Positions 42,447 through 58,174 of a stretch of 58,174 nucleotides of DNA are shown in pieces. The DNA is from an archaeon. Its GTDB lineage: Archaea > Asgardarchaeota > Thorarchaeia > Thorarchaeales > Thorarchaeaceae. The stretch's first letter is position 1. Each line of letters starts with the position of its first letter. The stretch is taken from positions 1 to 58,174 of the forward strand of contig JAJRWI010000001.1 in the NCBI GenBank assembly GCA_024276825.1, read 5' to 3'. A program made the translations under genes and the position numbers. The notes beneath the pieces are model-generated. The model saw nothing but the letters and a program-made list of their open reading frames with translations, was not told the origin of the DNA and made no database searches.

Positions 42447-42465
42447 CTAAATATGCAATTGAAAA

Positions 42466-43386
42466 TTATGCAATCTTTGCTGGCTTGAATCTTGTCATGC
42501 GAAGAATGTTAGTCCTAAATATCTTGCCAATTGCATCTTCTGCAAGGCAGAACTGAGGACAGATCGAACTTACCGCCCGATACTGTTCCTCAAGGATGTT
42601 TACTCTGAAGCCTCTCGGAAAGAAACAAGAGTCTGTCCCAAAAATCACTCTGTCTGGTCCTCCTGCCTTGATGGCCTTCTCAAACACCTTTGTGATAGTC
42701 AGAGCATATGGAAGATAGTTCATCCAAGAGTTGCTACCACTCGAGTCCATGACCACATTCTCCGTCTGATACATGAGCATTAGCATTTCTCTGAAGTATC
42801 CTGCTCCGAAGTGCGCTATCATGAAATTGAGGTCTGGAAAATCGTGGGCTGGTTTCTGAATGTCAAGTGGATTGCCAAAGCGAAGGTTTGCCTCGGTGCC
42901 TATTGTAATTCCAAAATGGAGGATAACCAGCAATTTGTGCTTAAGTGCCTCCTCATAAATGGGATATACTCTCTCATCATATGCATGAAAATTCCAAGAG
43001 CTTGGATAGAGTTTAATTCCTTGAAACTTGTCTTTTGCTGCTTGCTTAACGGTTTCAACAGCATCTTCGCGAGAAGGATTGATATTAGCATATCCAAGAA
43101 AACGACCCGGCCATCTCTTCCTGGTTCGATTGAATTCTTCCCATGTTTCAGGTCCAATCATCATTCCAATCGCTGTGATCCCATAACGATTGAGCTCATC
43201 GATCCACATTTTGCCCGCATCCCAGTCCTCGTGTGGAATCTCAAAACTCTTCATATCGGTGTGCGATGAAACCCTTTCTCTGATCTTAGCCAGAGAACGA
43301 CCATCACTCAGCCATTTCTTTAAAGTCTGGTAAGTCATGAAATGAGCATGAGCATCAATGACCTCAATTCCAACTCTAGAAATCAT
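42466..43386 (-). CDS. Amidohydrolase-2 family metal-dependent hydrolase
   Basis: IDAHAH, GIKLYP, HFG, AHFG, FGTD. Confidence 0.9.
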   Translation of the reverse strand: MISRVGIEVIDAHAHFMTYQTLKKWLSDGRSLAKIRERVSSHTDMKSFEIPHEDWDAGKMWIDELNRYGITAIGMMIGPETWEEFNRTRKRWPGRFLGYANINPSREDAVETVKQAAKDKFQGIKLYPSSWNFHAYDERVYPIYEEALKHKLLVILHFGITIGTEANLRFGNPLDIQKPAHDFPDLNFMIAHFGAGYFREMLMLMYQTENVVMDSSGSNSWMNYLPYALTITKVFEKAIKAGGPDRVIFGTDSCFFPRGFRVNILEEQYRAVSSICPQFCLAEDAIGKIFRTNILRMTRFKPAKIA

Positions 43387-43544
43387 TTATCTTGCACCTA
43401 GACTTCATAGGATTCGCCTTCAGTCTTATCATATTTCCGAAAGAGGAGGTTTTCATGAACCATCTATATGCGAATTCGAATGGCAATATGACCTGACTTT
43501 ATTGTTATGAAACTCTACTGTGCATTTCTATGACCGATTGATAC

Positions 43545-44993
43545 TCATGATTCCAATGACTTGTGATCATGACCTATTATGCCCGCCCTTGTCATTTTCT
43601 CAGGAACAAGAACTTTGTCTAATTCTTCTTCGGTCATGAGCCCGGCTTCTAATACCAGATCTCGGATTGGTCTTTTTGTTTCAAGAGCCTTCTTGGCAAT
43701 TCGTGATGCTGCTTTGTATCCGATGTAAGGGTTCAGTGCAGTCACAAGTCCAATACTTCTATGGACAACATCTAGTCCTTCTGGATTTGGCTTGATTCCC
43801 TTTATGCATTTCTCGGTAAAGATTGGAATCGAGTTCTTCAGAATCTTCAATGCCTGAAAGAAGTTGTATGCAATTACTGGTTCAAATGCGTTCAGTTCTA
43901 GTTGTCCTGCTTGTGATGCTATTGATATCACATTATCATGGCCAATCACCTGATAAGCGCATTGAATCACGAGTTCTGGAATAACTGGATTGACCTTGCC
44001 GGGCATTATACTGCTGCCGGGCTGAACAGGTGGTAGAATGATCTCATGAAAGCCGCCTATTGGTCCTGAAGAGAGTATAATGAGGTCTCCGGCAATCTTG
44101 GCCAGATTTGTTGCCAGAACTCTGAGAAGTCCTGATGCATGAACAAACTCATCCGCGTTCTGTGTGTCATCAATCAAGTTGTCAGAGGTCTTGAGACCCA
44201 TAAGTCCAGTGACCTCTCTCAGATACTTTTCAGCAAGATTGATGTATTCAGGGTCTGCATTAAGGCTCGTGCCAATCGCAGTAGCACCTATATTATGCGT
44301 TTCTAAAACATCCATAGCACTACCGATTCTATCAAGATCTCGTTTCAATGCCCCCGACCAAGCTGAGAACTCTTGGCCTAAAGTTATGGGTACAGCGTCT
44401 TGCATCTCGGTCCTTCCAAGTTTTAGCATTGACTTGTATTTCTCAGCATTCTCATCAAGGGCCTTAATGAGCTTAGCAAGAACGCGCCTAAGATCATTGA
44501 GTCCATAAATCGTTGCAACTTTGATGGCGGTGGGGTAAACATCGTTAGTCGATTGTGACATGTTAACATGATCATTTGCAGAGATTGGAGCCTGCGAGTT
44601 ACGCGGATATCCAAGAATCTCATTTGCCCTAGACGCGATGACCTCATTTGTATTCATATTCGTTGATGTTCCAGCACCCCCTTGAAGCATATCAACTATG
44701 AATTGATCATGCAATTTTCCTGCGATTATCTCATCACATGCCTGTACGATCGCATTTGCATATTCATCAGAAAGATGCTTCAGATCCCTATTGGCTAATG
44801 CACATGCTTTTTTCACCATTGCTAATGTTGTGACTAGTGTAGAATAGTTATGCAGGGGCACTCGTGAAACTGCAAAGTTCTCATGCGCCCGTAGGGTCTG
44901 TACACCCCAATAAACATCAATTGGAATTCTTCGTGTGCCCAAAAGGTCACTCTCTTCTCGATATTCTGTGCTGTCATCGCTCATGGCAAACAT
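43545..44993 (-). CDS. aspA: Aspartate ammonia-lyase (fumarase/aspartase family)
   Basis: QGGAGTSTNMN, HVNMSQSTND, GRT-x2-QDAVP, GSSIMPGKVNP. Confidence 0.9.
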   Translation of the reverse strand: MFAMSDDSTEYREESDLLGTRRIPIDVYWGVQTLRAHENFAVSRVPLHNYSTLVTTLAMVKKACALANRDLKHLSDEYANAIVQACDEIIAGKLHDQFIVDMLQGGAGTSTNMNTNEVIASRANEILGYPRNSQAPISANDHVNMSQSTNDVYPTAIKVATIYGLNDLRRVLAKLIKALDENAEKYKSMLKLGRTEMQDAVPITLGQEFSAWSGALKRDLDRIGSAMDVLETHNIGATAIGTSLNADPEYINLAEKYLREVTGLMGLKTSDNLIDDTQNADEFVHASGLLRVLATNLAKIAGDLIILSSGPIGGFHEIILPPVQPGSSIMPGKVNPVIPELVIQCAYQVIGHDNVISIASQAGQLELNAFEPVIAYNFFQALKILKNSIPIFTEKCIKGIKPNPEGLDVVHRSIGLVTALNPYIGYKAASRIAKKALETKRPIRDLVLEAGLMTEEELDKVLVPEKMTRAGIIGHDHKSLES

Positions 44994-45284: not shown

Positions 45285-46508
45285 GTGAATGGATTGCGTA
45301 GAAAATATACACTTGGAACAATCCCGGTACTTGGAGCTCTTCTGTTTGTGATCTTTTTGGGATCTGCATTTGCATTTCCCGGACAGACTGGAATCTGTTC
45401 TGCATCAGGGTGTCATGATGATCCCAGTGCAATCAGTATTTCAGCAACGCCGCAGTCTATAACAGTAGAAGCTGGCAAAGAGTTTGCCATTCTTATAGAT
45501 GTTCAGGGCGAAACTGGCCAGAATGTACTCTATTTAAAATATCCCAGTGATGTCGCTGATAACTCAAAGTTTAGCTATGTTGGCCTCGATTCCGAGGGTG
45601 GAGTGAGCGATGGTGATCCCGTTGACTTAAACACTGACGTTGATGCTGTAACGGTCAATTACACAATTATTGCACCCGATACACCCGGCGTCTACACACT
45701 CAGGGCCTTTGCTGCACAGCACACTCCTAGATCCAATAATGTTGAGATCTCTGTGACCGTGATTCCACCCGCTGGTGCTGGTCCGACTATTCTCTTCATT
45801 AATGCTACTCCTTCCATACCAATCGATTCGCAGGATGTTCTTGTTGTGACAAATGTGAGTTCTAATGCCGCCATCACCAGTGTCATTTTACAATACAGTC
45901 TTGATAATGGGACATCATGGGAAAACATTACAATGAACTATGTGGACAATCAGTGGCAGGGTGTTATCCCTCGGCAACCAAATGGCACATTAGTTGTGTA
46001 CAGAATAGTGGCCATTGATGAGTTTGGCATAGAAACGGTGTCATGGGAATTGAGATACACCGTGGGTGAGTTTCCACAACCCCCCAGCGAACCAGTAGAA
46101 TTACCCCAGCTGCATTTTGGCTGGCTGCTGGGAGGCCCTGCGATTGTTCTTGCCTATCTTGGAACTGCCCTTGAATATTATGATGAGGAGAGATTCACCC
46201 GAATTCATGGGATAATGTTGAGTGTGGCATATATTCTAACAACCATCAATGTCCTCTGGTTGTTTTTCGAAGACCCATCAATCTGGATGTTTATGAATCC
46301 CACATATTTGTTCAGCCTATCCAACATCTCTGCCTTTGTGCATGCTTGGCATATTTGGCTTGGTATCATTAGTATGATATTTGGGACATTTGCATTTCTC
46401 ACACATTTGGGGGGATGGAAGACATGCAACTTGGGCCTGCCTGCTGTTGTGATCTGGACAATACTGGGAATCACAGGATTCTATCTTGGAACAATGTATA
46501 GGATGTGA
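45285..46508 (+). CDS. Exported reeler/Ig-like protein with CX4CH motif and C-terminal His-bearing cytochrome-b-like TM domain
   Basis: Signal peptide, CSASGCH, Ig-like second domain, about 4 TM helices with His (LHFG, IHG, HAWH, TH). Confidence 0.65.
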   Translation: MNGLRRKYTLGTIPVLGALLFVIFLGSAFAFPGQTGICSASGCHDDPSAISISATPQSITVEAGKEFAILIDVQGETGQNVLYLKYPSDVADNSKFSYVGLDSEGGVSDGDPVDLNTDVDAVTVNYTIIAPDTPGVYTLRAFAAQHTPRSNNVEISVTVIPPAGAGPTILFINATPSIPIDSQDVLVVTNVSSNAAITSVILQYSLDNGTSWENITMNYVDNQWQGVIPRQPNGTLVVYRIVAIDEFGIETVSWELRYTVGEFPQPPSEPVELPQLHFGWLLGGPAIVLAYLGTALEYYDEERFTRIHGIMLSVAYILTTINVLWLFFEDPSIWMFMNPTYLFSLSNISAFVHAWHIWLGIISMIFGTFAFLTHLGGWKTCNLGLPAVVIWTILGITGFYLGTMYRM

Positions 46509-46512
46509 TCAA

Positions 46513-47982
46513 ATGAGTCAAACCAAGCAAGTCACAAGTCTTAATGAATCCAACAAAGCAGATCAAGAAATAGACCCTGTTCTCGCACAACTCGTTAAGG
46601 TCGTAGGACCTGATAATGCATCAAATGATGAGTTGGAACGAATTGTTTACAGTGGTGATCCTTCATCCTTGCCCCACTTTCACTATCGATGGAAACGAAA
46701 GTATTTGGCAGACTATGTTGTGCGAGTAGAAAAAACAGATCAGATTCGTGAAATAATTCTGATAGCAAAGGAGCACAAGTTGGCAATAGTTCCAAGAGGT
46801 GGTGGTTCCAGTTGTATGGGCTCATCTTGTCCTTCACGTGGAGGAATCTCTCTAGACATTAAGAGAATGAATAAGATAATTGATATCAATGCCGAAGAAG
46901 GGTTCGTTAGAGTTGAGCCTGGAGTGACTTTTGCAGACCTCGAAATTGAACTGGCGAAAAAGGGCATGGAACTTGGAATATATCCAACAAGCGCAAAGAG
47001 TGCAGTGATTGGTGGCTGGATTGCCTGCGGTGGTAGAGCTGGCATTGGTACACCACGTTATGGAACATTGGAGGAAAACATCATAGAATTGAAAGTAGTC
47101 CTGTCTAATGGCGAGATAAAAATCGTTGCTGGCAAAGAGGCTTTGCCATATATTGGATCATTTGGAATTCTTGGCGTCATCGCTGAGGCAAAATTAAAGA
47201 TACGAAAGAAGCCTCCTCGAATAAAACCGCTGAGCTACACTTTTCAGCGGTTGGAAAGCTTGTGCGATGCGTTCACCAAAGTTGTTGGGCTATCAGCCAA
47301 ACCAGTCTATTTGAAGATTGCAGATGCAAGATTTCAAAAATATAGTAACCCCCTTGAAAAGGGACGCTATGTTTTAACACTTGCATATAATGATGGCGAT
47401 GACATTCCCTTTGATGAACTGCAAAGAATTGTCGGAGAGAACGGTGGAGGGATGCTGGATGATGAATATGCTGAGAATGAATGGGAGCTTCGTTATGACT
47501 GTGAATTCAAGCCCAAAGAGTATTGTCATACCTTAATGTTTCAAGAAGTGTGGATTCATTCAGATAATGTATATGATGTTTTGGAGGCCTATGAAAGGAG
47601 CAAGAAGACCCATAAGGTCCCCGCTCTCTGGTTCGGCATGTTGGGCACACAATCAATGGTTCGGCTTGAATTAATGGCAATGCTTAATCCTGACAGGTAT
47701 TTGGAATTTATATCTAGCAAGGGCATACTTCACAAGATGGTCAAGAGGTCAATACGTCTTGGAGGTGGGCCTTATACCATAGGGCTGCAAAACTCGATTT
47801 ACATGAAGAAAGCCTATCCTGAGCGATATGCTGCTATGAAGAAACTGAAGAACGAACTTGATGTTGAAGGCATAATGAATCCCGACAGAGTGACCAATTG
47901 TCTAACATCCTATTCTCGCATTAATCTTCTATTCTTTCTAGCATCAGGTTTTAGACGATTGGCAAAATATGTGGCGAGGTGA
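46513..47982 (+). CDS. FAD-binding (VAO/GlcD-type) oxidoreductase 1
   Basis: PRGGGSS, VEPG, YPTSAKSAVIGGW, G-x-LGVI, IMNP. Confidence 0.88.
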   Translation: MSQTKQVTSLNESNKADQEIDPVLAQLVKVVGPDNASNDELERIVYSGDPSSLPHFHYRWKRKYLADYVVRVEKTDQIREIILIAKEHKLAIVPRGGGSSCMGSSCPSRGGISLDIKRMNKIIDINAEEGFVRVEPGVTFADLEIELAKKGMELGIYPTSAKSAVIGGWIACGGRAGIGTPRYGTLEENIIELKVVLSNGEIKIVAGKEALPYIGSFGILGVIAEAKLKIRKKPPRIKPLSYTFQRLESLCDAFTKVVGLSAKPVYLKIADARFQKYSNPLEKGRYVLTLAYNDGDDIPFDELQRIVGENGGGMLDDEYAENEWELRYDCEFKPKEYCHTLMFQEVWIHSDNVYDVLEAYERSKKTHKVPALWFGMLGTQSMVRLELMAMLNPDRYLEFISSKGILHKMVKRSIRLGGGPYTIGLQNSIYMKKAYPERYAAMKKLKNELDVEGIMNPDRVTNCLTSYSRINLLFFLASGFRRLAKYVAR

Positions 47983-47987
47983 TTTAG

Positions 47988-49118
47988 ATGAGGGTTGATA
48001 TTAAGACTGAACTTCTACGACATTGCGGGTCGTGTAACTATTGCAGAGATTTTTGCCCAATGTATCGGGAATTAGGCTCTGAACTTGAGAGCCCTGGAGG
48101 AAAAATTCGTGCACTCAGGGCCTATGCAGAGAAGCTGAGAAATCCTCCACAAGAACTGTTGGATCGTATTTATTGCGCGGACTGTCGCAGATGTGAAGCA
48201 ATTTGTCCTGCTGGAGTACCAGTCACTGAGATTTGGCATCAGGCAAAAGCATCATTGTTGCGGACTGGTGGCAAACTGGATGATTCATTATTGAAACTCC
48301 TTGATTGGCTAAAAAAGGAGGGGACGCCCTTCATTGGATTCGAAGCTGAAACTAGGGATGAATGGGCGGAAGACCTCGACCTTCCAACAGGTGCCAATAC
48401 CGCCCTATTTCCGGGCTGTATGGGTTCATTCTGGTACCCTGAACAACCGGAAATGGTTGTTGAGATGATGAAGAAGCTTAAAGTGAATGTTGGCTATGTC
48501 CCAAATGAAATATGTTGTGGACTGATGAATTATTGGGCAGGTGATGACAAAGGCTTCGAAGAGGTTGCAAGGAAGAATTATGAGATGTTCAAACGCGCTG
48601 GTGTGCAACATATTATAACCGGTTGTGGAGGCTGTTTTGGGACCCTTGCAGAGCTTTATCCCAAAGTGATAGATGGATTCGACATAAAGATCCTTCACAC
48701 TGTAGAAGTATTAGACGATATGGTTGCCAATGGAGTACTCACATTCAAGGGGAAAAAGGGCCGTTATACATTTCATGACTCATGTCATCTTGGGCGTGCG
48801 TTGGGAATCTATGACCCTCCCCGTGAGATCATCCGAGCGATTCCTGAACTTGAATTCGTGGAGATGAAAAACAACAGGGAGAACTCGAATTGCTGTGGTG
48901 GTTTTCTAATTGTCCGAGACCCCCAGCTGTCAGAATCCATTGGCAGGAAACGAGTTGCAGAAGCTGAAGAAATTGGTGTAGATGGAATCATCACGACTTG
49001 CATTTCATGTTACAAGAATCTCAGCTACTGCGCACGCGACACGAATATCGAAGTAATTCAACTGGACGAACTTATCCTCGAACTAGCGCAAACATCATTA
49101 GTTGAGGAGGAAACATAA
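47988..49118 (+). CDS. GlcF/HdrD-like Fe-S oxidoreductase 1 (2x[4Fe-4S] plus two CCG domains)
   Basis: CGSCNYC-x3-CP, CADCRRC-x3-CP, EICCG, HDSC, NCCGG. Confidence 0.92.
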   Translation: MRVDIKTELLRHCGSCNYCRDFCPMYRELGSELESPGGKIRALRAYAEKLRNPPQELLDRIYCADCRRCEAICPAGVPVTEIWHQAKASLLRTGGKLDDSLLKLLDWLKKEGTPFIGFEAETRDEWAEDLDLPTGANTALFPGCMGSFWYPEQPEMVVEMMKKLKVNVGYVPNEICCGLMNYWAGDDKGFEEVARKNYEMFKRAGVQHIITGCGGCFGTLAELYPKVIDGFDIKILHTVEVLDDMVANGVLTFKGKKGRYTFHDSCHLGRALGIYDPPREIIRAIPELEFVEMKNNRENSNCCGGFLIVRDPQLSESIGRKRVAEAEEIGVDGIITTCISCYKNLSYCARDTNIEVIQLDELILELAQTSLVEEET

Positions 49119-49126
49119 ATAATCGA

Positions 49127-50467
49127 ATGGACGGTGCAAAAATGAGTGAATCACGTGGAAAAAGGGTGTTTATTGTTGGAGCTGGTATTGCGGGCTTTAG
49201 TTGTGCCCTTGAACTAAAGGGTCTCAAGGCCCGGTGCCAGATATTGGAAAAAGAACCCACAGTTGGAGGAAGAGCAAGGTCCTTCACTGAATCGGGATAT
49301 GTGTTTGATCAAGGACTACACTTCTTTGTTGGAGGCTTTAAGTCATTAATTCCAATTCTAGAGAGAAGTGGTGTTCGCTTGACCACTGTGGGTGAAGGAG
49401 CTGTCTGGCTAAAAGATGGTGAGAGGTACATCATCAGAAGGTCTGCATTGGATCTTGCTAAATTCGGACTTCTGCCAACTCTCGACAGGGGACGTCTGGG
49501 CAGCCTAGTGAGAGAGAACTTGGGCCGGAGTATGGATGACTTCTTGGAACTCGATAAAATGACCTTTGCTGAATATGCTGAGGACAAGATTCCTGAAACC
49601 ATCTATGAGAACTTTTACGATCCACTGATCAAAACAGTGACATTCATGCAACCAGATGAAGTTTCTGCAGGGCAGTATCTCTATGCGGAGCAACTTCGTT
49701 TTGCATATGAAGATGGATTCAAAGCTATGTACCCCGAGCGAGGAGGTCTTGGAAGTGTGCCTTATACATTAATGCTTCAAGCTAGGAACTTTGCAATTGA
49801 ACCAAAAGTGAATTGCACTGTGAAGAAGATTATAATTGAAGATGATCAAGTGACCGGAATTGATTATGAGGTTGATGGTGAGACAAACCATGCAGAAGCA
49901 GACATTGTTGTGGTTACAACTCCGATCGACCTACTCCCCAATTTCATCGATATGAACAAGTTGCCCAATGACTTTGTAAACTCGATCAAGGAGTTTGAAT
50001 ACAGGCCTTGTGTGGTGGCATACTTCGGCCTTTCATCACGAGTACTGGACTTCAATGTTGCAGGGTTCGTACCGGGTAGAAAAGTCCACATAATAGCCGA
50101 GGCAAAGAGGGTGTCTGGCGTTCTGGCCCCGATCGGAGAGTCATTACTGACAGTCACCTCGATAGACAAGGAACTATTGAACATGAAGAATGGAGAGGCA
50201 GCCGATGTTATCCTTGACGAACTTGAGGAGATAATTCCTGGACTAAAACAAAAGATTACCTGGAAGAAAAGCTGGAGAATTTGGAAGTCGCTCTTGGCAC
50301 AACCTCCAGGTATCATGGAAAAGCGATTGAAGTCCAATCGGACCGGAATAAAGGGCCTTTATGTGGCTGGAGCCTTTGCCAACTGCGAGAACTACTATGC
50401 TTCGATGGAAGCAGCATCAAGGTCTGGCATTGCTTGTGCTGAAGAGATGAATCAAGATTTCAAATAA
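49127..50467 (+). CDS. Flavin amine-oxidase/phytoene-desaturase/HemY-like oxidoreductase
   Basis: GAGIAG, EKEPTVGGRARS, DQGLH, YVAG...SMEAASRSG. Confidence 0.85.
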   Translation: MDGAKMSESRGKRVFIVGAGIAGFSCALELKGLKARCQILEKEPTVGGRARSFTESGYVFDQGLHFFVGGFKSLIPILERSGVRLTTVGEGAVWLKDGERYIIRRSALDLAKFGLLPTLDRGRLGSLVRENLGRSMDDFLELDKMTFAEYAEDKIPETIYENFYDPLIKTVTFMQPDEVSAGQYLYAEQLRFAYEDGFKAMYPERGGLGSVPYTLMLQARNFAIEPKVNCTVKKIIIEDDQVTGIDYEVDGETNHAEADIVVVTTPIDLLPNFIDMNKLPNDFVNSIKEFEYRPCVVAYFGLSSRVLDFNVAGFVPGRKVHIIAEAKRVSGVLAPIGESLLTVTSIDKELLNMKNGEAADVILDELEEIIPGLKQKITWKKSWRIWKSLLAQPPGIMEKRLKSNRTGIKGLYVAGAFANCENYYASMEAASRSGIACAEEMNQDFK

Positions 50468-50481
50468 CTTGAAAAAAGTAA

Positions 50482-51717
50482 TTGGGAATTGGCGGCAAAT
50501 CAAGTCCGCCAATTCTTTCTCAAGTAGGTGCAATTAATGTGAGGCATATGGCTTTTCTAAAAGACAGCGGTTATGAAGCGGTTCCTTATGTCTGTGCCTT
50601 CTGTGGAAACTGCACCATGGTCTGTCCTGCATTTATGCATCTACGATGGGAACCCTTCGGTCCACGAGGAAAACTTCACGCAACAAAAGAGATCATTGAA
50701 GGAGTCATTAACATCGATGAGGAATATGTGCGTCGAATGTATCTCTGCTCTTTATGTGATCATTGCACGCAGATCTGTACCACTAGCATTCCTCTTCTTG
50801 AATTTTGGTTATTCATAAGAAAGGAAATTGAAATGTTTGGGCTAACACCTCCATCAATATCCTTCATTTCAAAGTCATTGGAAGACTATGGTGATCCTTT
50901 TGCTATGGGTCCGGAATCAAGAAGGATTTGGACTCGGGGTATTAAGAAAATCGTTGAGCCACGAATTGGGAAACAGGCTGAAACCCTCTTCTTTATTGGA
51001 TGTGCTTGTGCCCTGAAGCCACAATTGCATGGTATTGTAAGGTCTATGATTAAGATAATGGAAAGAGCTGGGATTGACTATTCACTACTTGGAGAGAACG
51101 AGGCCTGCTGTGGTGCTCCCCTCTTGTGGGGTGGAAAGCCAGCTGGTGCTAAGGAATTAGCTGAACAAAATATAATATGGTTTAGAAAGATTGGTGCAAA
51201 AACAATTGTCTTTAATTGTCCAACATGTCTGAATGCAATAAACGAAGCCTATGCAAAGATCTATGGTACACACGCGGAAAAGGAGTTTAATCTACTTACA
51301 GCATCACAGTTTATTGTTCATCTGATAAGAGAAGGAGCACTTGAATTCGAGGAGCAGCCTCTTGTTACGGTCACTTATCATGACCCCTGCGTAGCAGCAA
51401 GAAAGTTGAATGTCATTGACGAACCAAGGGAAATAATTGATAGCATTCCCGGTCTCTATAAAGTTGAAGTAATAAACTCCGGAAAAGAAACGCATTGTTG
51501 TGGCAGTCATGGGCTATTGAATGTGATAGATCCATTATTATCATCAAAGATTGCTGAAGAGCGACTAAGGCAAATGTCCATCACTCCTGCTTCACGAATT
51601 ATCACCGAGTGCCCTAGTTGTATTCAATCACTTGAACTTGCAACGCATACCATGCAATATCCAATTGCAGTCGAACACATAGCCCAACTTGTAGCTGATG
51701 CTCTGAGGGATGAATAA
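50482..51717 (+). CDS. GlcF/HdrD-like Fe-S oxidoreductase 2
   Basis: CAFCGNC-x3-CP, CSLCDHC-x3-C, EACCG, YHDPC, HCCG. Start uncertain. Confidence 0.92.
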   Translation: MGIGGKSSPPILSQVGAINVRHMAFLKDSGYEAVPYVCAFCGNCTMVCPAFMHLRWEPFGPRGKLHATKEIIEGVINIDEEYVRRMYLCSLCDHCTQICTTSIPLLEFWLFIRKEIEMFGLTPPSISFISKSLEDYGDPFAMGPESRRIWTRGIKKIVEPRIGKQAETLFFIGCACALKPQLHGIVRSMIKIMERAGIDYSLLGENEACCGAPLLWGGKPAGAKELAEQNIIWFRKIGAKTIVFNCPTCLNAINEAYAKIYGTHAEKEFNLLTASQFIVHLIREGALEFEEQPLVTVTYHDPCVAARKLNVIDEPREIIDSIPGLYKVEVINSGKETHCCGSHGLLNVIDPLLSSKIAEERLRQMSITPASRIITECPSCIQSLELATHTMQYPIAVEHIAQLVADALRDE

Positions 51718-51718
51718 T

Positions 51719-53442
51719 ATGAGAGATGGTCAACAATTCTTTGAAGATCTTGTTGGCGCAGATAATGTTTCATTTGATGACGAACTAGACTTCTCTATTC
51801 AAGAGACCTCTCCAGTCTGCCCAAACTTGCTGGTCAAATAATCAAGAACGAATTTGAGTTGATAGCCCAGCCTGTTTCCGTAGCTTCCCTCAGTCAACTT
51901 GTTCGTTTCCTGTGCAAGAAGAAAATTGCCATTGTTCCCCGAGGAAATGGCACCTCTGGCTGGGGCGGTGCATTGCCCACGAAAGGTGGAGCATGTATTG
52001 ATCTCCGTATGATGAACGACATCCTTGACTTCGATGAATACAGGCTGTCAGTCACTGTGGAGGCGGGAATCACATGGCGTAAATTACTCATGTTTCTTGA
52101 AAGCATTGGCCTTACACTTCCTGTATACCCATCTAGTGCAGCATCAGCCACAGTAGGCGGCTTTGTGGCCAGTAATGGGCTAGGAATAGGTTCTGCACAC
52201 TTTGGAGAGATTTGCAATAATGTCTTGGGAATGGAAGTTGTTCTGCCGAATGGTCTGGTTGTTCGTGTTGGAAATGTTGTAATAACCAGCAATGACAATG
52301 ATAGAACCATTGCTGCTGAGGGGACTGATTGGTTCGATAAGGTCCTTGAAGAAATTCATTTTTCAAAGCATGTCAACCCTATTAGAATATTCTGTGGAAC
52401 CTATGGTACTATGGGAATCATTACAAAAGTAACCCTTCGTGTGGTACCAAAACTCATTCACAGAAGTTTTGCCTGTAGTTTTGACTCGTTAAAACCAATG
52501 ATCAATGCTATGGTTGAGATACAAGAGAAATCTAACCCTTACAACATTCGTTTTATAATGGATAGTTATTCTGAGAAACTAGCTGCTCTCTCATCACATC
52601 AGGACGAATATGGCAAGTTCATAATTTCAGGGGCCTTAATGGATACCCTTGATAATGTTGACAATGCTTTGGATGAACTTCTCAAGATCATTGAGAAATA
52701 TAATGGAACTATTTTGGATGAAGAACGCAGTGCGTATTACTGGAACGAAAGATTCTTTCCCCTTCGAATCAAGAAACTTGGACCAAGCTTGGTTCCATCT
52801 GAAATACTAATTGATATCAGAAAGATCCCGGAACTCTATGAAGAAGTTCTCCACAAGATTCCAAGGGCTCACCTCGCAGTAGAAGGTCAAATGGGCAAGG
52901 CAACCCTTGGGTCATTCTTGGCCTGGATATTGGATGATGAGCGTCGAAAACTGACATACACATTGGGTTGGCATCGGTCCTTCGATATCGCCTCATTAGC
53001 CATGAAGAAAGGAGGACGACCTTACTCTGTTGCGCTCTGGAATGCTTATCTCGCTGAGAATTATTATGGCAAGGCATGGTTCGATGAACTTCGACAAGTG
53101 AAAAAACGAATTGATCCGAATAACATAATGAATCCATTGAAGGTATTTGGCGGTCGTGTATCAGCCAAAAAAGAATCTCTCCTATTTGGGTTCATTACGC
53201 CGTTTATTACTGTTCTCTCCCTTTCAGTTCTGCTTCCTCTCCTATTGAATTGGCATTGGCTTCTACAACTTCTCTGGTCTTCAGAATACTTGATATCACC
53301 CGGACTGGCTATAGCAATATTAGCTGGAGTTGCTGGATATGCCTTCATCTATTTAATGTCATTTCAACTTGCTATTCGTCTTGGCGTATCTATCTTACGA
53401 ATCGGTGATAGGGTCATTAGAAGAATGGCTACTGGTCTGTAA
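51719..53442 (+). CDS. FAD-binding oxidoreductase 2 with C-terminal TM helices; one-base frameshift near 51780
   Basis: N-terminus MRDGQQFFEDLVGADNVSFD lies in one frame and RTRLLYSRD... continues in the 51859 frame. PRGNGTSGWGG, YPSSA, KKLGPSLVPSE. Confidence 0.85.
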
Positions 53443-53660
53443 AAAAGCCCTCCTTCGGGTCCCTTTTCATGCCATCATGAAATGCGATACCCCTAACTAG
53501 TTCTTCATTTGGCGAGTATTCAACTTTGTCCAAGCTCTACGCATCTATGCACAACCCTAAAATAGCATTTTTTCCTTCAAAATGCAAAATGAAACCATAT
53601 TTATTGGATAAGTTAGATGTTGATATTTTAACAAAATCGCGAAAAAAGGAGTAAGGCGAA

Positions 53661-54266
53661 TTGAATTCAAAAATAGTGTCCATAACTGCAATAAGTTTCA
53701 TTCTAATAATTATCGTGTCGGGAGCATTCTTAGCAATAGGATTTCCTGATCAGACTAGTGAATGTGATGTATGTCATACTAACACAAGTGTGTTAATATT
53801 GACATCAAATGCCACAGGAACTGTTGAGGCAGTCAATGGTGTTCCATTCGTGATCTCAATTAATGGTTCCAATGGTGTTGAGGCACTGAAGATAGTGAGT
53901 GATTGGGCAGACAACAGCAAGTTCTCGTTCTCTCTCATGCAAATTAGTGATGGCGACCCAGATGACAGTGATGCAGATACAGGCGAGATAAGTGTTGATA
54001 TCTCAGTGACTCCACTTGAAACGGGGAGCTTTACAATCAGAATCTGGGTTGCTGCACCAGGACAACTCTCTGCCAGTCTTGATGTAAGTGTGGATGTTTC
54101 AGAGAACACATCATCAACAACTCCAACCACTTCTACCACAACATCAGCAACTCCTACTCAGGACCCAGTTGAAACATGGACATCTCTAATGCTCACAATT
54201 AATCCAATTGTAGCTGTCGTGCTAATAGTACTCGGATTTGTACTATTCAAGCGAGTTGAGCGGTAG
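53661..54266 (+). CDS. Exported mono-heme cytochrome c-like protein (CxxCH) with reeler/Ig-like domain and C-terminal TM anchor
   Basis: Signal peptide, CDVCH, Ser/Thr stalk, TM. Paralogous to the N-terminus of 45285..46508. Confidence 0.72.
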   Translation: MNSKIVSITAISFILIIIVSGAFLAIGFPDQTSECDVCHTNTSVLILTSNATGTVEAVNGVPFVISINGSNGVEALKIVSDWADNSKFSFSLMQISDGDPDDSDADTGEISVDISVTPLETGSFTIRIWVAAPGQLSASLDVSVDVSENTSSTTPTTSTTTSATPTQDPVETWTSLMLTINPIVAVVLIVLGFVLFKRVER

Positions 54267-54276
54267 GTGATAACTA

Positions 54277-54774
54277 ATGGCAATTCATCCTGTATTCATT
54301 CATTTCCATACTGGAATTCTAACAGCAAACGCAGTACTCTGCCTGATAATGATAGTACTTCGAGTTGTGTTTCGTGAAGCAATCAATACACCCGGAACCA
54401 AGATGGCAAGAATCTTCCATGAATTAGACTTGTTCATCTTTTGGGGAAACATCATTGGCCTGCTTGGTCTGTTTGGAGGTATGGTGACGGGTCTCATGGA
54501 CTGGCCACTGCAAGCATTACTGGCCAATGCCTATATGCGTGCAAAGATGTTCTGGTCAATCATGGCTGTTCAGATCTATCTGTTTCTTGTAATTGTCAGA
54601 GCCAAGCTTGGCGACAAGATATGGAAATCCACGAGTGGCTTTATGATATATGGTGTGCTCGGAATCGTTGGCGGTGCTATGATAATCCTGATGGGTGCGT
54701 TGGGTGGCATAGCTGTCTATGGGACATCAATTTTGGAGCCCGTACTTGATTGGCTAGGCATGCCATGGCCGTGA
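54277..54774 (+). CDS. DUF2231-like 4-TM membrane protein (cytochrome-b-like)
   Basis: N-terminal HPVFIHF, TG, and C-terminal GALGG-x2-VYG. Confidence 0.7.
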   Translation: MAIHPVFIHFHTGILTANAVLCLIMIVLRVVFREAINTPGTKMARIFHELDLFIFWGNIIGLLGLFGGMVTGLMDWPLQALLANAYMRAKMFWSIMAVQIYLFLVIVRAKLGDKIWKSTSGFMIYGVLGIVGGAMIILMGALGGIAVYGTSILEPVLDWLGMPWP

Positions 54775-55967
54775 GAGTGATCACAGTGGGATCTCAGCAA
54801 TTTGAAAACCTGCGAAAGGCGGCTCTGGATATAGAGCCGTTGATCTGCGCTAGATGCGGCTTCTGCACATTTGTGTGCCCAGCGTATTTGGACACACTCT
54901 GGGACTCTCAATCACCACGTGGAAAGCTGTATCAATTGCGAGAGTTGATAAAGAAGAAGCAGCCAATACCTGCAGATTTCGCGGAGCGCATCTTCAGATG
55001 CACTCTCTGTGGTGCGTGTCAAGAAATTTGCCAGACGAAAATACCACTACTTCATTTCTGGCAGATTATCAGGCAAGAGGTGAACCTGGCAGGTCATTGG
55101 CCAGAAATAGTGCATTTTCTGGACAAGAACATCCAACAGAGTCAGAATATCATGGACCTTGATCAAGAGGACAGAACAATATGGGCTGATATGGTGGATG
55201 ACATAGTTGAAGGCCATATTGGGAAGGCTGCTGCAACCGCCTACTTTGTTGGCTGCAATATCTCCTTCAAGGGTTCATTGGCCTCGATAGCTGAAAACAC
55301 AGTCAAACTGTTCAATCATCTTGACATCGATTTCACCATTCTTGGCGAGAAAGAGTTCTGCTGTGGAAACCCCTATTTTGTGGCAGGCGAATGGGATAAG
55401 GCCCGTGAGATTGCAAAGCATCACCTTGAAGAACTTAAACGCCTTGGTGTTAAACGGGTCGTGTTTAATTGCCCTGGATGCCATCGTGCTTTTAATGAAG
55501 AATATTCACATTTGCTTGGTGAGGAATCAACAAAGGACTTTGAATTCATCCCATTTTCGCAATTCGTGGCCATGAACCTACGCGACGGCAGACTGAAATT
55601 CACCAAGGAATACTCTCATGTAGTGACATGGCATGACCCTTGTGAACTTGGTCGCCATCAGAACATCTACGACTATTCTAGAGAAGTACTTGCAGCAATC
55701 CCGGGTCTTGAACTCAGGGAGATGAAACACACACGAAATAAATCTGATTGCTGCGGCGGTGGTGGACTGCTTAAGGGCACCAATCCAACTATGTCAGTCC
55801 GCATCTCGGCAAGGAGGTTGGAATCGGCTGAGAAAACAGGGGCAGAATTTCTACTTAGCGAATGTCCCTCATGTATGATGTCATTCTTTGATGGAATTGA
55901 ATACAAACACTCTAAGATCCAATTCAAGGATCTCTCAGAGATTGTTGCGGAGGCTTTGGACCTGTGA
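54765..55967 (+). CDS. GlcF/HdrD-like Fe-S oxidoreductase 3
   Basis: CARCGFC-x3-CP, SPRGK, CTLCGAC-x3-C, EFCCG, WHDPC, DCCGGGG. Start (54765 or 54771) overlaps the upstream stop. Confidence 0.92.
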   Translation: MAVRVITVGSQQFENLRKAALDIEPLICARCGFCTFVCPAYLDTLWDSQSPRGKLYQLRELIKKKQPIPADFAERIFRCTLCGACQEICQTKIPLLHFWQIIRQEVNLAGHWPEIVHFLDKNIQQSQNIMDLDQEDRTIWADMVDDIVEGHIGKAAATAYFVGCNISFKGSLASIAENTVKLFNHLDIDFTILGEKEFCCGNPYFVAGEWDKAREIAKHHLEELKRLGVKRVVFNCPGCHRAFNEEYSHLLGEESTKDFEFIPFSQFVAMNLRDGRLKFTKEYSHVVTWHDPCELGRHQNIYDYSREVLAAIPGLELREMKHTRNKSDCCGGGGLLKGTNPTMSVRISARRLESAEKTGAEFLLSECPSCMMSFFDGIEYKHSKIQFKDLSEIVAEALDL

Positions 55968-55978
55968 GGTGATTATGA

Positions 55979-57706
55979 ATGTTACGAGAAAAACAACTCA
56001 AAAAATTAGCAGATATAGTGGGTGAGGATAATTTCTCAGCTGAGAAATATATGCGAAAACTATACTCCCATGATGTGGGTGCCTTACCTGGAATTGTCAA
56101 TGATATCCTGAAAGCTGAAGTTGATGCAGTTGTTCAGCCAACCTCGTCAGAAGTCGTGTCCAACCTGATCAAGTACTGTCTAGAAAACAAAATTCCCATA
56201 GTTCCACGAGGACATGCAACCAGTGGATATGGTGGTGCCCTGCCGACCCATGGTGGCATAGCAGTTGAAATGACCCGAATGAATGAGATATATAATTTAG
56301 ATTTGGAAAACATGACGGTGGAGGTAGGTGCTGGAATCATTTGGGGGGCTCTTCTTGAAGCCCTTGAAGATCATGGAGTGACCATTCGAGCATATCCATC
56401 TAGTGCTCCATCAAGCACTGTTGGTGGCTGGGTTGCTGCAGGTGGTTCAGGAATTGGGAGCACAAAATATGGAGGGATCAAAGACCAAGTGGTTGACCTT
56501 GAAGTTGTGTTACCGACTGGCCAGATAATCAGAACAAGCAATCCCCCGCCAGACCTGATTGAAAAGATTTCCAAGGATGACTATGAATTCTTTCCAAATG
56601 CTTCCACCTATGTCTGGGCAATTGATGACTTTGGACTTGATGATGTTGATCTGACACCATATTTTGTGGACAGTAATGGTTCTCTTGGGATAATTACAAA
56701 AGTCGTCTTGAGAATCATTCCTTTGCAAGAGTTTCGGCCTTTTGTTGCATCTTTTGAGAATCGTGAGCAAATGTTTTGGGCCATGCAAGACATAATGAAA
56801 CGCACAAAACCCTTTTACTTGCACTTCATCACAGATGGGTTCAATGAGATGCTAACAGAAGTGAACATGCCAACTCACTCAAAGCATCCTTGGTTGATAC
56901 TGTGCGTTTATGAGGGGTCCTCTGAGAGCATCTCGCAAGAAGAGAGAATATTCCGCGAGATTGTCTCTAAGAACTATGGCGTCATTGAACCCGATGAGGT
57001 CGGCGAGCATGAATGGGAAGAACGCTTCTATCCCATGCGTATCAAACGATTGGGTCCAAGTCTTGCACCTTCTGAGGTTTATGTCCCCCTTGAGAATATG
57101 TTGTCATTCTTGGAACGCGCTGAGAAGCATTTCAAGGGCGAACGATTTGCAGTTGAAGGTGCAGTAAACAACCTGGGAGAAGTTGCTGTTCTTGCCTGGT
57201 TCTTAGATGATGAACGCAGAACAATTCCATTTCTCATGGGTTGGTATAGATCTCTCGATTTCATTGATATTGGAATCAAAGAAAATGGAAGGGCCTATTC
57301 AATCGGAATGTGGAATGTTTCTCATTCTCTCAATTTCTATGGGAAGAAAAGATACGCCAATATGGCTCGCCTGAAGAAGTCCACTGACCCAAAAATGATT
57401 GTCAATCCAAACAAGGTGTTTTCAGGACCTCTTCAACTCTCTATTCGAATGAGCCTTCTAATCCTTGCAGTGGCTGCTGTTGCGGTGCCTATTGGTTTAT
57501 GGATTGCGGGACTATATGTTGGTGATCTGATTGCAGCATACGTTCCATGGCTTATAATGGACAATCCATTGAGTGTTCTAATTGCTTTTGCAATTGGAAT
57601 CTTTCTGGGTGTTGCTGTCAATGAACTTGTGAACATTGTTCCGATAACGTTCGTATTAACAATTGGTCGGCCATTCCTTCGACTTGGGCGAAAGATATTC
57701 CATTAG
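55979..57706 (+). CDS. FAD-binding oxidoreductase 3 with C-terminal TM helices
   Basis: PRGHATSGYGG, YPSSAPSSTVGGW, EWEERF-x-P-x-RIKRLGPSLAPSE, two C-terminal TM segments. Confidence 0.9.
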   Translation: MLREKQLKKLADIVGEDNFSAEKYMRKLYSHDVGALPGIVNDILKAEVDAVVQPTSSEVVSNLIKYCLENKIPIVPRGHATSGYGGALPTHGGIAVEMTRMNEIYNLDLENMTVEVGAGIIWGALLEALEDHGVTIRAYPSSAPSSTVGGWVAAGGSGIGSTKYGGIKDQVVDLEVVLPTGQIIRTSNPPPDLIEKISKDDYEFFPNASTYVWAIDDFGLDDVDLTPYFVDSNGSLGIITKVVLRIIPLQEFRPFVASFENREQMFWAMQDIMKRTKPFYLHFITDGFNEMLTEVNMPTHSKHPWLILCVYEGSSESISQEERIFREIVSKNYGVIEPDEVGEHEWEERFYPMRIKRLGPSLAPSEVYVPLENMLSFLERAEKHFKGERFAVEGAVNNLGEVAVLAWFLDDERRTIPFLMGWYRSLDFIDIGIKENGRAYSIGMWNVSHSLNFYGKKRYANMARLKKSTDPKMIVNPNKVFSGPLQLSIRMSLLILAVAAVAVPIGLWIAGLYVGDLIAAYVPWLIMDNPLSVLIAFAIGIFLGVAVNELVNIVPITFVLTIGRPFLRLGRKIFH

Positions 57707-57718
57707 GGATTCATAATT

Positions 57719-57756
57719 CCAGCACACTAAAAAGACAAGGTGTGCTGGTCTTTTTT
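57719..57756 (+). terminator. Intrinsic terminator-like hairpin
   Basis: CCAGCACAC...GTGTGCTGG followed by TCTTTTTT. Confidence 0.6.
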
Positions 57757-57770
57757 ACCTGGTGATAGTA

Positions 57771-58174
57771 GTGGCAAGTATCGCTATTAAGGCCGAGGGC
57801 CTCACACGTAGATATGGTTATAGAATCGCACTTAAGCGAGCATCCTTCGAGATCCCCGAGGGTGGAATCCATGCTCTGTTTGGTGCAAATGGGGCGGGAA
57901 AGACGACTCTACTTAGGATCATATCAACTCTTCTTCGTCCCCATGGCGGAATGATAAGAGTGTTTGATATGGACCCAGAAGAGGACTCTCTACAGATTCG
58001 AGCATGTCTGGGACTGCTTGGTGATAAGCCATTACTTTATCCAGAACTTACAGGTCGGGAGAACTTCCAATTCTTTGGCCGACTATATGGTATAAGCGTT
58101 GATCAGGTGAATGAAAGAAGCGAAAAACTTGCAACCCAGTTTGGAGTATATAACTGGTTGGACGAGCCTGTAAA
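57771..58174 (+). CDS. ABC ATPase, CcmA-like (heme export), 3'-truncated by the window edge
   Basis: Not in the ORF track. GTG after GGTGAT, Walker A GANGAGKTT, PLLYPELTGRENFQFFGRLYG. The CcmA call rests partly on gene context. Confidence 0.75.
   Translation, partial: MASIAIKAEGLTRRYGYRIALKRASFEIPEGGIHALFGANGAGKTTLLRIISTLLRPHGGMIRVFDMDPEEDSLQIRACLGLLGDKPLLYPELTGRENFQFFGRLYGISVDQVNERSEKLATQFGVYNWLDEPV

Follow-up and report, generated by a model that had tools for sequence, protein, structure and literature searches.

A candidate respiratory-type gene island in Thorarchaeaceae that pairs flavoproteins and CCG iron-sulfur proteins with predicted outward-facing haem c modules

Gene content of the locus and its continuation beyond the contig

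The window analysed here is the whole 58,174-bp contig C16 of a Thorarchaeaceae archaeon (GCA_024276825.1; genome of 2.94 Mb, 98% complete), and our subject is its last part, positions 45285-58174, which is filled by eleven open reading frames (ORFs), g1 to g11, all on the + strand, as seen from the ORF list and from Pfam and NCBIfam scans. A previous reading made from the sequence alone (the sequence-only reading) had listed here eleven co-oriented genes, namely three flavin adenine dinucleotide (FAD) oxidoreductases, three proteins with two [4Fe-4S] and CCG motifs, a flavin desaturase-like enzyme, two exported C..CH proteins, a histidine-bearing transmembrane (TM) protein and a CcmA-like ATPase, and had proposed a membrane-spanning chain from cytoplasmic flavin and Fe-S enzymes to outward-facing haems. 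Each item of this inventory was recovered: FAD_binding_4 matches were obtained for g2, g6 and g10, complete cluster motifs were located in g3, g5 and g9, g4 matches the Amino_oxidase family, signal peptides are predicted for g1 and g7, g8 has four TM helices with four invariant histidines, and g11 encodes the N-terminal 137 amino acids of CcmA. As weighed below, these genes may well form the core of a larger respiratory-type island.

The first gene, g1 (45285..46508), codes for an exported protein in which a beta-sandwich with a CX4CH motif (CSASGCH) is followed by a fibronectin type III (Fn3)/immunoglobulin (Ig)-like domain and by a histidine-rich module of four TM helices, which we call TM-A. 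Its end overlaps by 23 nt the start of g2 (46486..47982), a class-A flavoprotein of the VAO/GlcD type without a TM tail. Next come g3 (47988..49118), an HdrD/GlpC-like protein with two [4Fe-4S] and two CCG motifs, g4 (49127..50467), a protein of the FAD amine-oxidase fold that is nearest to phytoene desaturase and HpnE, and g5 (50482..51717, the real start probably near 50548), which is HdrD-like and has the same motifs as g3. The product of g6 (51719..53442) is a class-B flavoprotein with a two-helix C-terminal membrane anchor. The remaining genes are g7 (53661..54266), encoding an exported monohaem-type protein (CDVCH) with a stalk rich in threonine and serine and a C-terminal TM helix, g8 (54277..54774), a DUF2231-type membrane protein of four TM helices, g9 (54786..55967; called as an ORF from 54750, with the probable start at 54786), again HdrD-like with two [4Fe-4S] and two CCG motifs, g10 (55979..57706), a class-B flavoprotein anchored by three C-terminal helices, and g11 (57762..58174), a ccmA gene for an ATP-binding cassette (ABC) ATPase that is cut by the contig end. 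Within the cassettes the spacers range from -23 to 14 nt, which suggests co-translation of the cassette genes; the single 218-nt gap precedes g7.

The g6 gene carries a 1-nt frameshift near 51786: the true start is the ATG at 51719, the first ~22 residues lie in another frame, and the long ORF begins at 51859. The orthologues in two related genomes, G001 and G007, are uninterrupted, and the frameshift reflects a fault of the assembly or else a recent lesion or pseudogenisation. Upstream of the island, positions 40125-44993 hold genes for a 773-amino-acid DUF3160 protein (+), an Amidohydro_2 protein (-) and a class II fumarase/aspartase (-); in relatives these genes show no synteny with the island.

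The ccm genes for cytochrome c maturation (Ccm), to which the sequence-only reading had looked just beyond the window, are present. Read as its reverse complement, contig C43 opens with the remaining half of an ABC ATPase gene, directly followed by ccmB, ccmC and ccmE; nearby, and convergent to them, lie ccmF, a gene for a 730-amino-acid protein and a gene for a 7-haem cytochrome. The ccmA halves of C16 and C43 align, about 5 codons apart, to one gene of the closed congener genome G001, and the join of the two contigs is therefore well supported. In G001 the joined ccmA is preceded by collinear g1 to g10 and followed by ccmB, ccmC and ccmE. The half-protein of g11 scores 59.8 bits on TIGR01189, whose cut-off of 131.6 bits is set for the full length. 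CcmC and CcmF carry WWD motifs, and CcmE has a CxxxY motif, which we take to be the archaeal variant of system I.

The 7-haem cytochrome (C43, 15206-16663) has 485 amino acids and seven CXXCH motifs. A paralogous 7-CXXCH cytochrome, 73% identical to it, is encoded on contig C74 (23020-24456), and both have an N-terminal signal anchor, a stalk rich in threonine and valine, a C-terminal TM helix and an odd CMHCM motif. CXXCK, the active-site motif of NrfA, was found in neither of the two, and their likeness to NrfA and octahaem reductases is distant. The adjacent 730-amino-acid protein (C43, 16773-18965; L022:13454-15646:+) is exported or anchored and gives weak matches to (alpha/alpha)6 barrels, of the GH88 and N-acylglucosamine epimerase-like kinds; its gene always stands between those of the 7-haem cytochrome and ccmF, both in this genome and in G007. 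A few kilobases from the cytochrome gene, C43 (12008-13225) also encodes a DUF998 membrane protein and an S26 signal peptidase.

Flavoproteins, iron-sulfur proteins and candidate haem modules

The three flavoproteins match FAD_binding_4 (PF01565) with E values from 1e-35 to 4e-39 and FAD-oxidase_C (PF02913) weakly, with 24-31 bits. Of the solved structures, LctD, a D-lactate dehydrogenase subunit (7qh2, E 6.5e-29), lies closest to g10, and in the alignment of the two, His377 of LctD is replaced by Asn, His384 by Leu and His423 by Tyr; in the numbering of the 7qh2 work, we take the first two to be metal ligands and the third to be the catalytic histidine. The same Tyr is found in g2 and g6, which have no histidine in the aligned blocks, and the His-His-Glu metal site and catalytic histidine of D-2-hydroxyacid dehydrogenases were not found in the alignments of any of the three. 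Since these residues are replaced, the flavoproteins are to be regarded as GlcD-related and not as canonical 2-hydroxyacid dehydrogenases. The GlcD-like/CCG pairs of the sequence-only reading are thus borne out as to the flavoprotein family and the CCG partner, and not as to a D-2-hydroxyacid dehydrogenase active site. The flavoprotein domains lack a signal peptide, and those of g6 and g10 are followed by the TM anchors.

A class-B paralogue elsewhere in the genome (contig C80, 28-41 kb; L045) is fused to NuoB and adjoins NuoD/NuoJ-like genes, an HdrD-like CCG protein, menA, a polyprenyl synthase and a geranylgeranyl reductase. Because this GlcD-like paralogue is NuoB-fused and stands beside a CCG protein and menA, it suggests that class-B flavoproteins are electron-input modules for membrane carriers.

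Each of g3, g5 and g9 contains two CxxCxxCxxxC motifs and two complete five-cysteine CX(n)CCGX(n)CxxC motifs, and each matches the Pfam CCG family (PF02754) in two stretches with E values of 1e-32 to 1e-36; topology prediction gave no TM helix in any of them. The cluster motifs of g9 are invariant in 22 orthologues, and g3 retains 70-74% identity across genera. Among solved structures, g9 comes nearest to the soluble part of the mycobacterial EtfD (9ojn), with residues 78-385 aligning to 406-722 at E 1e-31; it can also be aligned from end to end with the models of TmcB and HmcF, under their cut-offs (104 vs 735 bits for TmcB). The most conserved gene of the cluster is g4, with 72-75% identity in G001, G004 and G007. 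It matches Amino_oxidase with E 2e-33 and HpnE (TIGR03467) with 113.8 bits against a cut-off of 283, and its best solved relative is a plant phytoene desaturase (5mog).

Two proteins are candidates for covalent haem c. In g1, a signal peptide is followed by CSASGCH, two Ig-like beta domains and four TM helices with five conserved histidines; residues C38, C43, H44, H277, H308, H353, H356, H374 and C381 are invariant among 46 homologues. The g7 protein, with its signal peptide, CDVCH motif, single beta domain, linker, TM helix and, as predicted, a basic tail after that helix, is a short homologue of the first g1 domain (E 4e-13). Its C..CH motif is invariant in 22 orthologues with a spacing of 2, 4 or 5 residues, and invariant Cys, Cys and His with varying spacing are the pattern expected of a haem attachment site; together with the invariance in g1 this settles in the affirmative the motif conservation on which the sequence-only reading had depended. 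In both proteins the first cysteine follows an AxA-like site by 7-8 residues, and the haem motif is predicted to be on the outer face of the membrane. The AlphaFold2 model of g1 (mean predicted local distance difference test, pLDDT, 84) matched tandem Ig-like domains only in a Foldseek search, and g1 gave no Pfam family match; its family is limited to Thorarchaeota and other Asgard genomes. For the g7 domain the ESM Atlas gave a sub-threshold lead to Reeler (score 0.83), a family that is not among the 25 most-matched of 56 families in Pfam scans of 30 family members. Further members of the family were seen elsewhere: a 556-amino-acid protein at the start of contig C77 (1-1669, -), with CGGCH after a signal peptide, is a third member of the haem-domain family in this genome and is fused to several Ig/PKD-like domains, and P0207, P0211, P0216 and P0225 from other Asgard metagenome-assembled genomes are distant g1 relatives that lack the middle Ig-like domain and often have xxxCH only.

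The two membrane modules were placed in the membrane on the basis of hydropathy, flanking charges and the exported N-terminus. In g8 (model pLDDT 88), the invariant His4, His9 and His11 are at the outer end of the first TM helix and the invariant His48 is at the inner end of the second. The protein scores 15.0 bits on DUF2231 (PF09990; cut-off 26.4) over the full length of the profile, its orthologue P0022 reaches 27.3 bits, and about 20 orthologues bear a precomputed PF09990 label. In TM-A of g1, His277, His353 and His356 are at the outer ends of helices and His308, His374 and Cys381 are at the inner face, a layout compatible with one haem b per membrane side. Judging from the conserved histidines and the gene context, both TM-A and g8 probably bind haem b.

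A profile search with TM-A found 56 clusters among 1.84 billion representatives. Its distant matches are proteins of ~290 amino acids with the same fusion of a C..CH (often xxxCH) beta-sandwich to TM-A, and the few clusters with names are Asgard. Profile searches of the PDB with both membrane modules returned no meaningful relative, wide VIA-align searches started from the models of g8 and g1 retrieved nothing but generic bundles of four helices and Ig/Fn3 domains, and fold searches with the whole g1 model gave four-helix bundles at Z 10-12, under the level meaningful for helical bundles. The eukaryotic cytochrome b561 family (PF03188) was considered for TM-A and gained no support: a six-frame search of the genome gave no match at E <= 10, and sub-threshold matches occurred in three of 30 family members (best E 0.021). 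The ESM Atlas offered DUF420 as a sub-threshold lead for TM-A (score 0.83), and two TM-A family members gave weak DUF998 matches (E 5e-4 and 7e-3).

Distribution of the island and supply of quinone and haem

The distribution was followed in 86 genomes of the family, representing 16 genera; since related genomes are not independent, the co-occurrence counts are descriptive and are no statistical test. The order g7-g8-g9-g10 is identical in 22 genomes, and g1 to g10 are collinear in G001, G004 and G007; these three have a fourth cassette in addition, with TM-A as a protein on its own beside a flavoprotein and a CCG protein. The genes for the 7-haem cytochrome, the 730-amino-acid protein and ccmF lie divergently upstream of g1 on one contig in G007. 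Order and content are kept across five genera at 50-75% protein identity, and the arrangement is more than chance. The synteny that the sequence-only reading had assumed holds, as no relative examined has the cytochrome-like genes apart from the FAD/CCG pairs.

The three markers of the island, g8 (35 of the 86 genomes), CcmE (37) and the 7-haem cytochrome (34), all occur in the same five of the 16 genera. In 31 genomes g8 and CcmE are found together, in 10 singly and in 45 neither is present, and in 18 genomes they are 5-19 kb apart on one contig. Several near-complete genomes of the island genera lack all three markers, e.g. G064 (99%) and G077 (97%). Because the markers are present or absent together within genera, the island is best regarded as one accessory unit.

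A menA gene that clears the NCBIfam cut-off (TIGR00751) is present in this genome, on C80. In G001, G004, G007, G085, G087, G089 and others, menA lies inside the island or within ~10 kb of it, for instance, in G001, between the fourth cassette and ccmA, and in G004 between g4 and g3; this position, shared by many relatives, makes a quinone of the menaquinone type a probable intermediate or side branch. As an island-specific marker menA was rejected, for it occurs in 14 of the 16 genera, including 9 of the 11 without the island. MqnA and MqnD were not found in this genome, and the quinone head group would for this reason have to be scavenged. HemB (PF00490) and HemC (PF01379) were not detected in this genome, nor was HemB in five relatives including the closed G001, and to our knowledge all haem routes pass through the HemB and HemC steps.

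Proposed electron path, alternatives and relation to known systems

From these results, a hypothesis regarding the electron path may be put forward. In each of the three cassettes, a membrane-associated VAO/GlcD-type flavoprotein would take electrons from a cytoplasmic donor and pass them to its HdrD-like partner, through two cubane [4Fe-4S] clusters and two non-cubane clusters of the CCG type, by a route like that of ETF, EtfD and EMO. In two cassettes the chain would continue to a histidine-rich four-helix module (TM-A of g1, or the DUF2231 protein g8), probably carrying haem b, and from the membrane haem to a covalent haem c on the outer face, in the ectodomain of g1 or in g7. The adjacent Ccm system I would mature the outer haem c, and the monohaem proteins would hand electrons on to the island's membrane-anchored 7-haem cytochrome or to an external acceptor, with a menaquinone-type quinone as the probable intermediate or side branch. 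Taken together, the region would be the core of a respiratory-type island of 25-30 kb, an EtfD/HdrDE-like wire to outward haem c that probably touches menaquinone, and to this reading we assign a probability of roughly 0.55. The membrane-spanning chain of the sequence-only reading thus survives as the best reading, through the ccm genes, the synteny and the motifs, while haem b is proposed from conserved histidines and the expected flavoprotein active site is absent; the 7-haem cytochrome, the menA link, the haem auxotrophy and the g6 frameshift, all found here, had no place in it.

A number of observations weigh against such a chain. By Pfam, PDB sequence profile and fold search, neither TM-A nor g8 matches a known haem b family, and the earlier label "cytochrome-b-like" has its basis in conserved histidines; the two modules also show no detectable relationship to each other (hhalign probability 0.1% for TM-A vs DUF2231). 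The stand-alone TM-A paralogues retain His277, His308, His353 and His356 and lose His374, and because they keep a single inner-face histidine, two bis-His haems per TM-A monomer are not general. As regards haem c, g7 has no second histidine and, among the 22 orthologues, no conserved Met or His that would serve as the distal ligand; distant g1 relatives often retain just xxxCH, which is atypical for system I, and the ccm genes could serve the 7-haem cytochrome alone. The flavoproteins lack the active-site residues of their closest characterised relatives, g6 is frameshifted in this assembly, and the cofactors were assigned from sequence motifs. Finally, the absence of HemB and HemC means that haem must come from outside. 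Haem import is a caveat for a cytochrome-based system and not a contradiction of it.

The same genes could instead serve a quinone loop without a direct wire, in which the FAD/CCG pairs are donor:menaquinone oxidoreductases, like GlcDEF, GlpABC, YdiJ and EtfD, and g1 and g7-g8 are quinol dehydrogenases of the CbcL/CymA/NrfH kind, which would supply the surface cytochromes with electrons. There is a precedent in CbcL, where a haem b membrane domain is fused to an outward c-type cytochrome domain (PMC9129911); menA is above its cut-off here and near the island in many relatives, and cassette II (g5 and g6) has no histidine-rich TM module. Against this, the head group would need scavenging in a genome without MqnA/D, menA is also present in most genera that lack the island, and the TM-module genes are tightly coupled to the FAD/CCG genes, by the 23-nt overlap and by spacers of 10-11 nt, in a strict order in 22 genomes, a tightness and order that suggest physical complexes of their products. 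We consider such a loop unlikely. Inward flow, as in Tmc, Hmc, DsrMK and HdrDE, appears more doubtful still: surface cytochromes c or quinol would deliver electrons by way of the membrane modules to the HdrD-like proteins, whose paired non-cubane clusters would reduce a cytoplasmic disulfide or another acceptor, with the flavoproteins as an outlet. In its favour, g3, g5 and g9 bear the pair of CCG motifs at which HdrD/HdrB reduces the heterodisulfide (PMC10861901), g9 shows the full-length, if sub-cut-off, alignment to TmcB and HmcF, and Tmc and Hmc do unite a CCG protein with cytochrome c in the periplasm and cytochrome b in the membrane (PMC10861901). However, TmcB, HmcF and DsrK have one CCG motif (PMC10861901), the cluster holds no thiol-cofactor or DsrC-type partner, and the NuoB-fused paralogue suggests that the flavoproteins feed membrane carriers and do not drain them.

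Two further explanations dispense with a dedicated chain. The VAO-type family includes DprE1 and alkyl-dihydroxyacetone phosphate (DHAP) synthase, and g4 with the membrane-tethered flavoproteins might modify polyprenyl lipids, that is, tailor lipids, isoprenoids or quinones, with the Fe-S and haem parts as mere electron disposal. The nearness of g4, the most conserved gene, to 5mog and its family-level match to HpnE, the membrane anchors of the flavoproteins, and the company of menA, polyprenyl synthase and geranylgeranyl reductase beside the paralogous FAD/CCG pair all agree with this; the lipid-enzyme matches are nevertheless far under the equivalog cut-offs, and three to four paralogous FAD/CCG cassettes with cytochromes c, Ccm and a multihaem cytochrome exceed what tailoring needs, which makes it improbable. 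Most improbable of all is that no functional chain exists, the genes being unrelated and together by history, with C..CH binding metal or forming disulfides and the ccm genes acting on the 7-haem cytochrome only. The evidence for the chain does come from sequence, and the first cysteine is missing in several distant relatives, but order and content conserved across five genera at 50-75% identity, presence and absence of the island as a unit within genera, and retention of the g1 fusion in distant relatives speak against it.

If the wire to outward haem c is real, a part of the Thorarchaeota would possess a membrane electron-transport route and a respiration-like export of electrons, with a bearing on sediment ecology and on syntrophy models of eukaryogenesis; DUF2231 and the Asgard-restricted TM-A family would gain a candidate role as haem-binding electron conduits. 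As it stands, the genome combines a full set of cytochrome c maturation genes with a lack of tetrapyrrole synthesis. Asgard archaea outside Heimdallarchaeia are usually modelled as fermenters, acetogens or hydrogen-dependent syntrophs. We propose, tentatively and at somewhat less than even odds, that certain Thorarchaeota genera, without haem synthesis of their own, run a cytochrome-based electron transport built from Asgard-specific parts, namely a C-Xn-CH beta-sandwich for haem c and two His-rich four-helix membrane modules not assigned before, in which VAO-type flavoprotein/HdrD-like pairs are plugged directly into surface cytochromes, for respiration on an external or periplasmic acceptor or for electron exchange with partner cells. 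No description of the island was found in the literature on cytochromes, Ccm, HdrD or extracellular electron transfer in Thorarchaeota and Asgard archaea, or in that on DUF2231, and papers on Helarchaeota and Hermodarchaeota report multihaem or extracellular cytochromes as absent (PMC9723726, PMC8163825).

Among known systems, the glycolate oxidase GlcDEF, the D-2-hydroxyglutarate dehydrogenase YdiJ and the D-lactate dehydrogenases LctD and LDHD share with the island a FAD_binding_4 flavoprotein paired with or fused to a CCG iron-sulfur protein, but here the metal and catalytic histidines are replaced, C-terminal membrane anchors are present, and the scores are far under the GlcD cut-offs. HdrDE of Methanosarcinales and the DsrMK(JOP), TmcABCD and HmcABCDEF complexes of sulfate reducers likewise combine a cytoplasmic CCG protein with a His-ligated membrane cytochrome b, which in our case is putative, and Tmc, Hmc and DsrJ place a c-type cytochrome on the outer face (PMC10861901). 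The CCG motifs number two here, as in HdrD, and one in DsrK, TmcB and HmcF (PMC10861901); in contrast to all these complexes, the membrane subunits of the island are not NarI/HdrE-like, a flavoprotein is the partner, and there is no DsrC or coenzyme M/coenzyme B context. CbcL of Geobacter sulfurreducens resembles g1, as interpreted here, in that one polypeptide unites a His-ligated membrane domain and an outward c-type cytochrome domain and lies on a path towards external acceptors (PMC9129911). No sequence relationship between the two was found, and CbcL has six helices, two haems b and nine c haems (PMC9129911), as against four helices in g1 and one C-X4-CH, set in an Ig-like beta-sandwich.

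The nearest parallel is EtfD, where electrons run from a flavoprotein over CCG and cubane clusters and a haem b to menaquinone (PMC13083937), and the Syntrophus aciditrophicus EMO complex operates in the same manner (bioRxiv 10.64898/2026.08.18.745454). The succession from a flavoprotein through two CCG-domain non-cubane clusters and two [4Fe-4S] clusters to a membrane haem b would be the same here. Instead of the fused five-helix membrane domain of EtfD, however, the island has a separate and unrelated four-helix protein, either DUF2231 or TM-A fused to a cytochrome c domain; instead of an ETF donor it has a membrane-tethered VAO/GlcD-type flavoprotein; and its chain would continue, unlike those of EtfD and EMO, to outward haem c, Ccm and a multihaem cytochrome. 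Set beside these systems, the island is a type of CCG-protein-based transmembrane redox complex in which previously unassigned membrane and haem c modules are the new parts.

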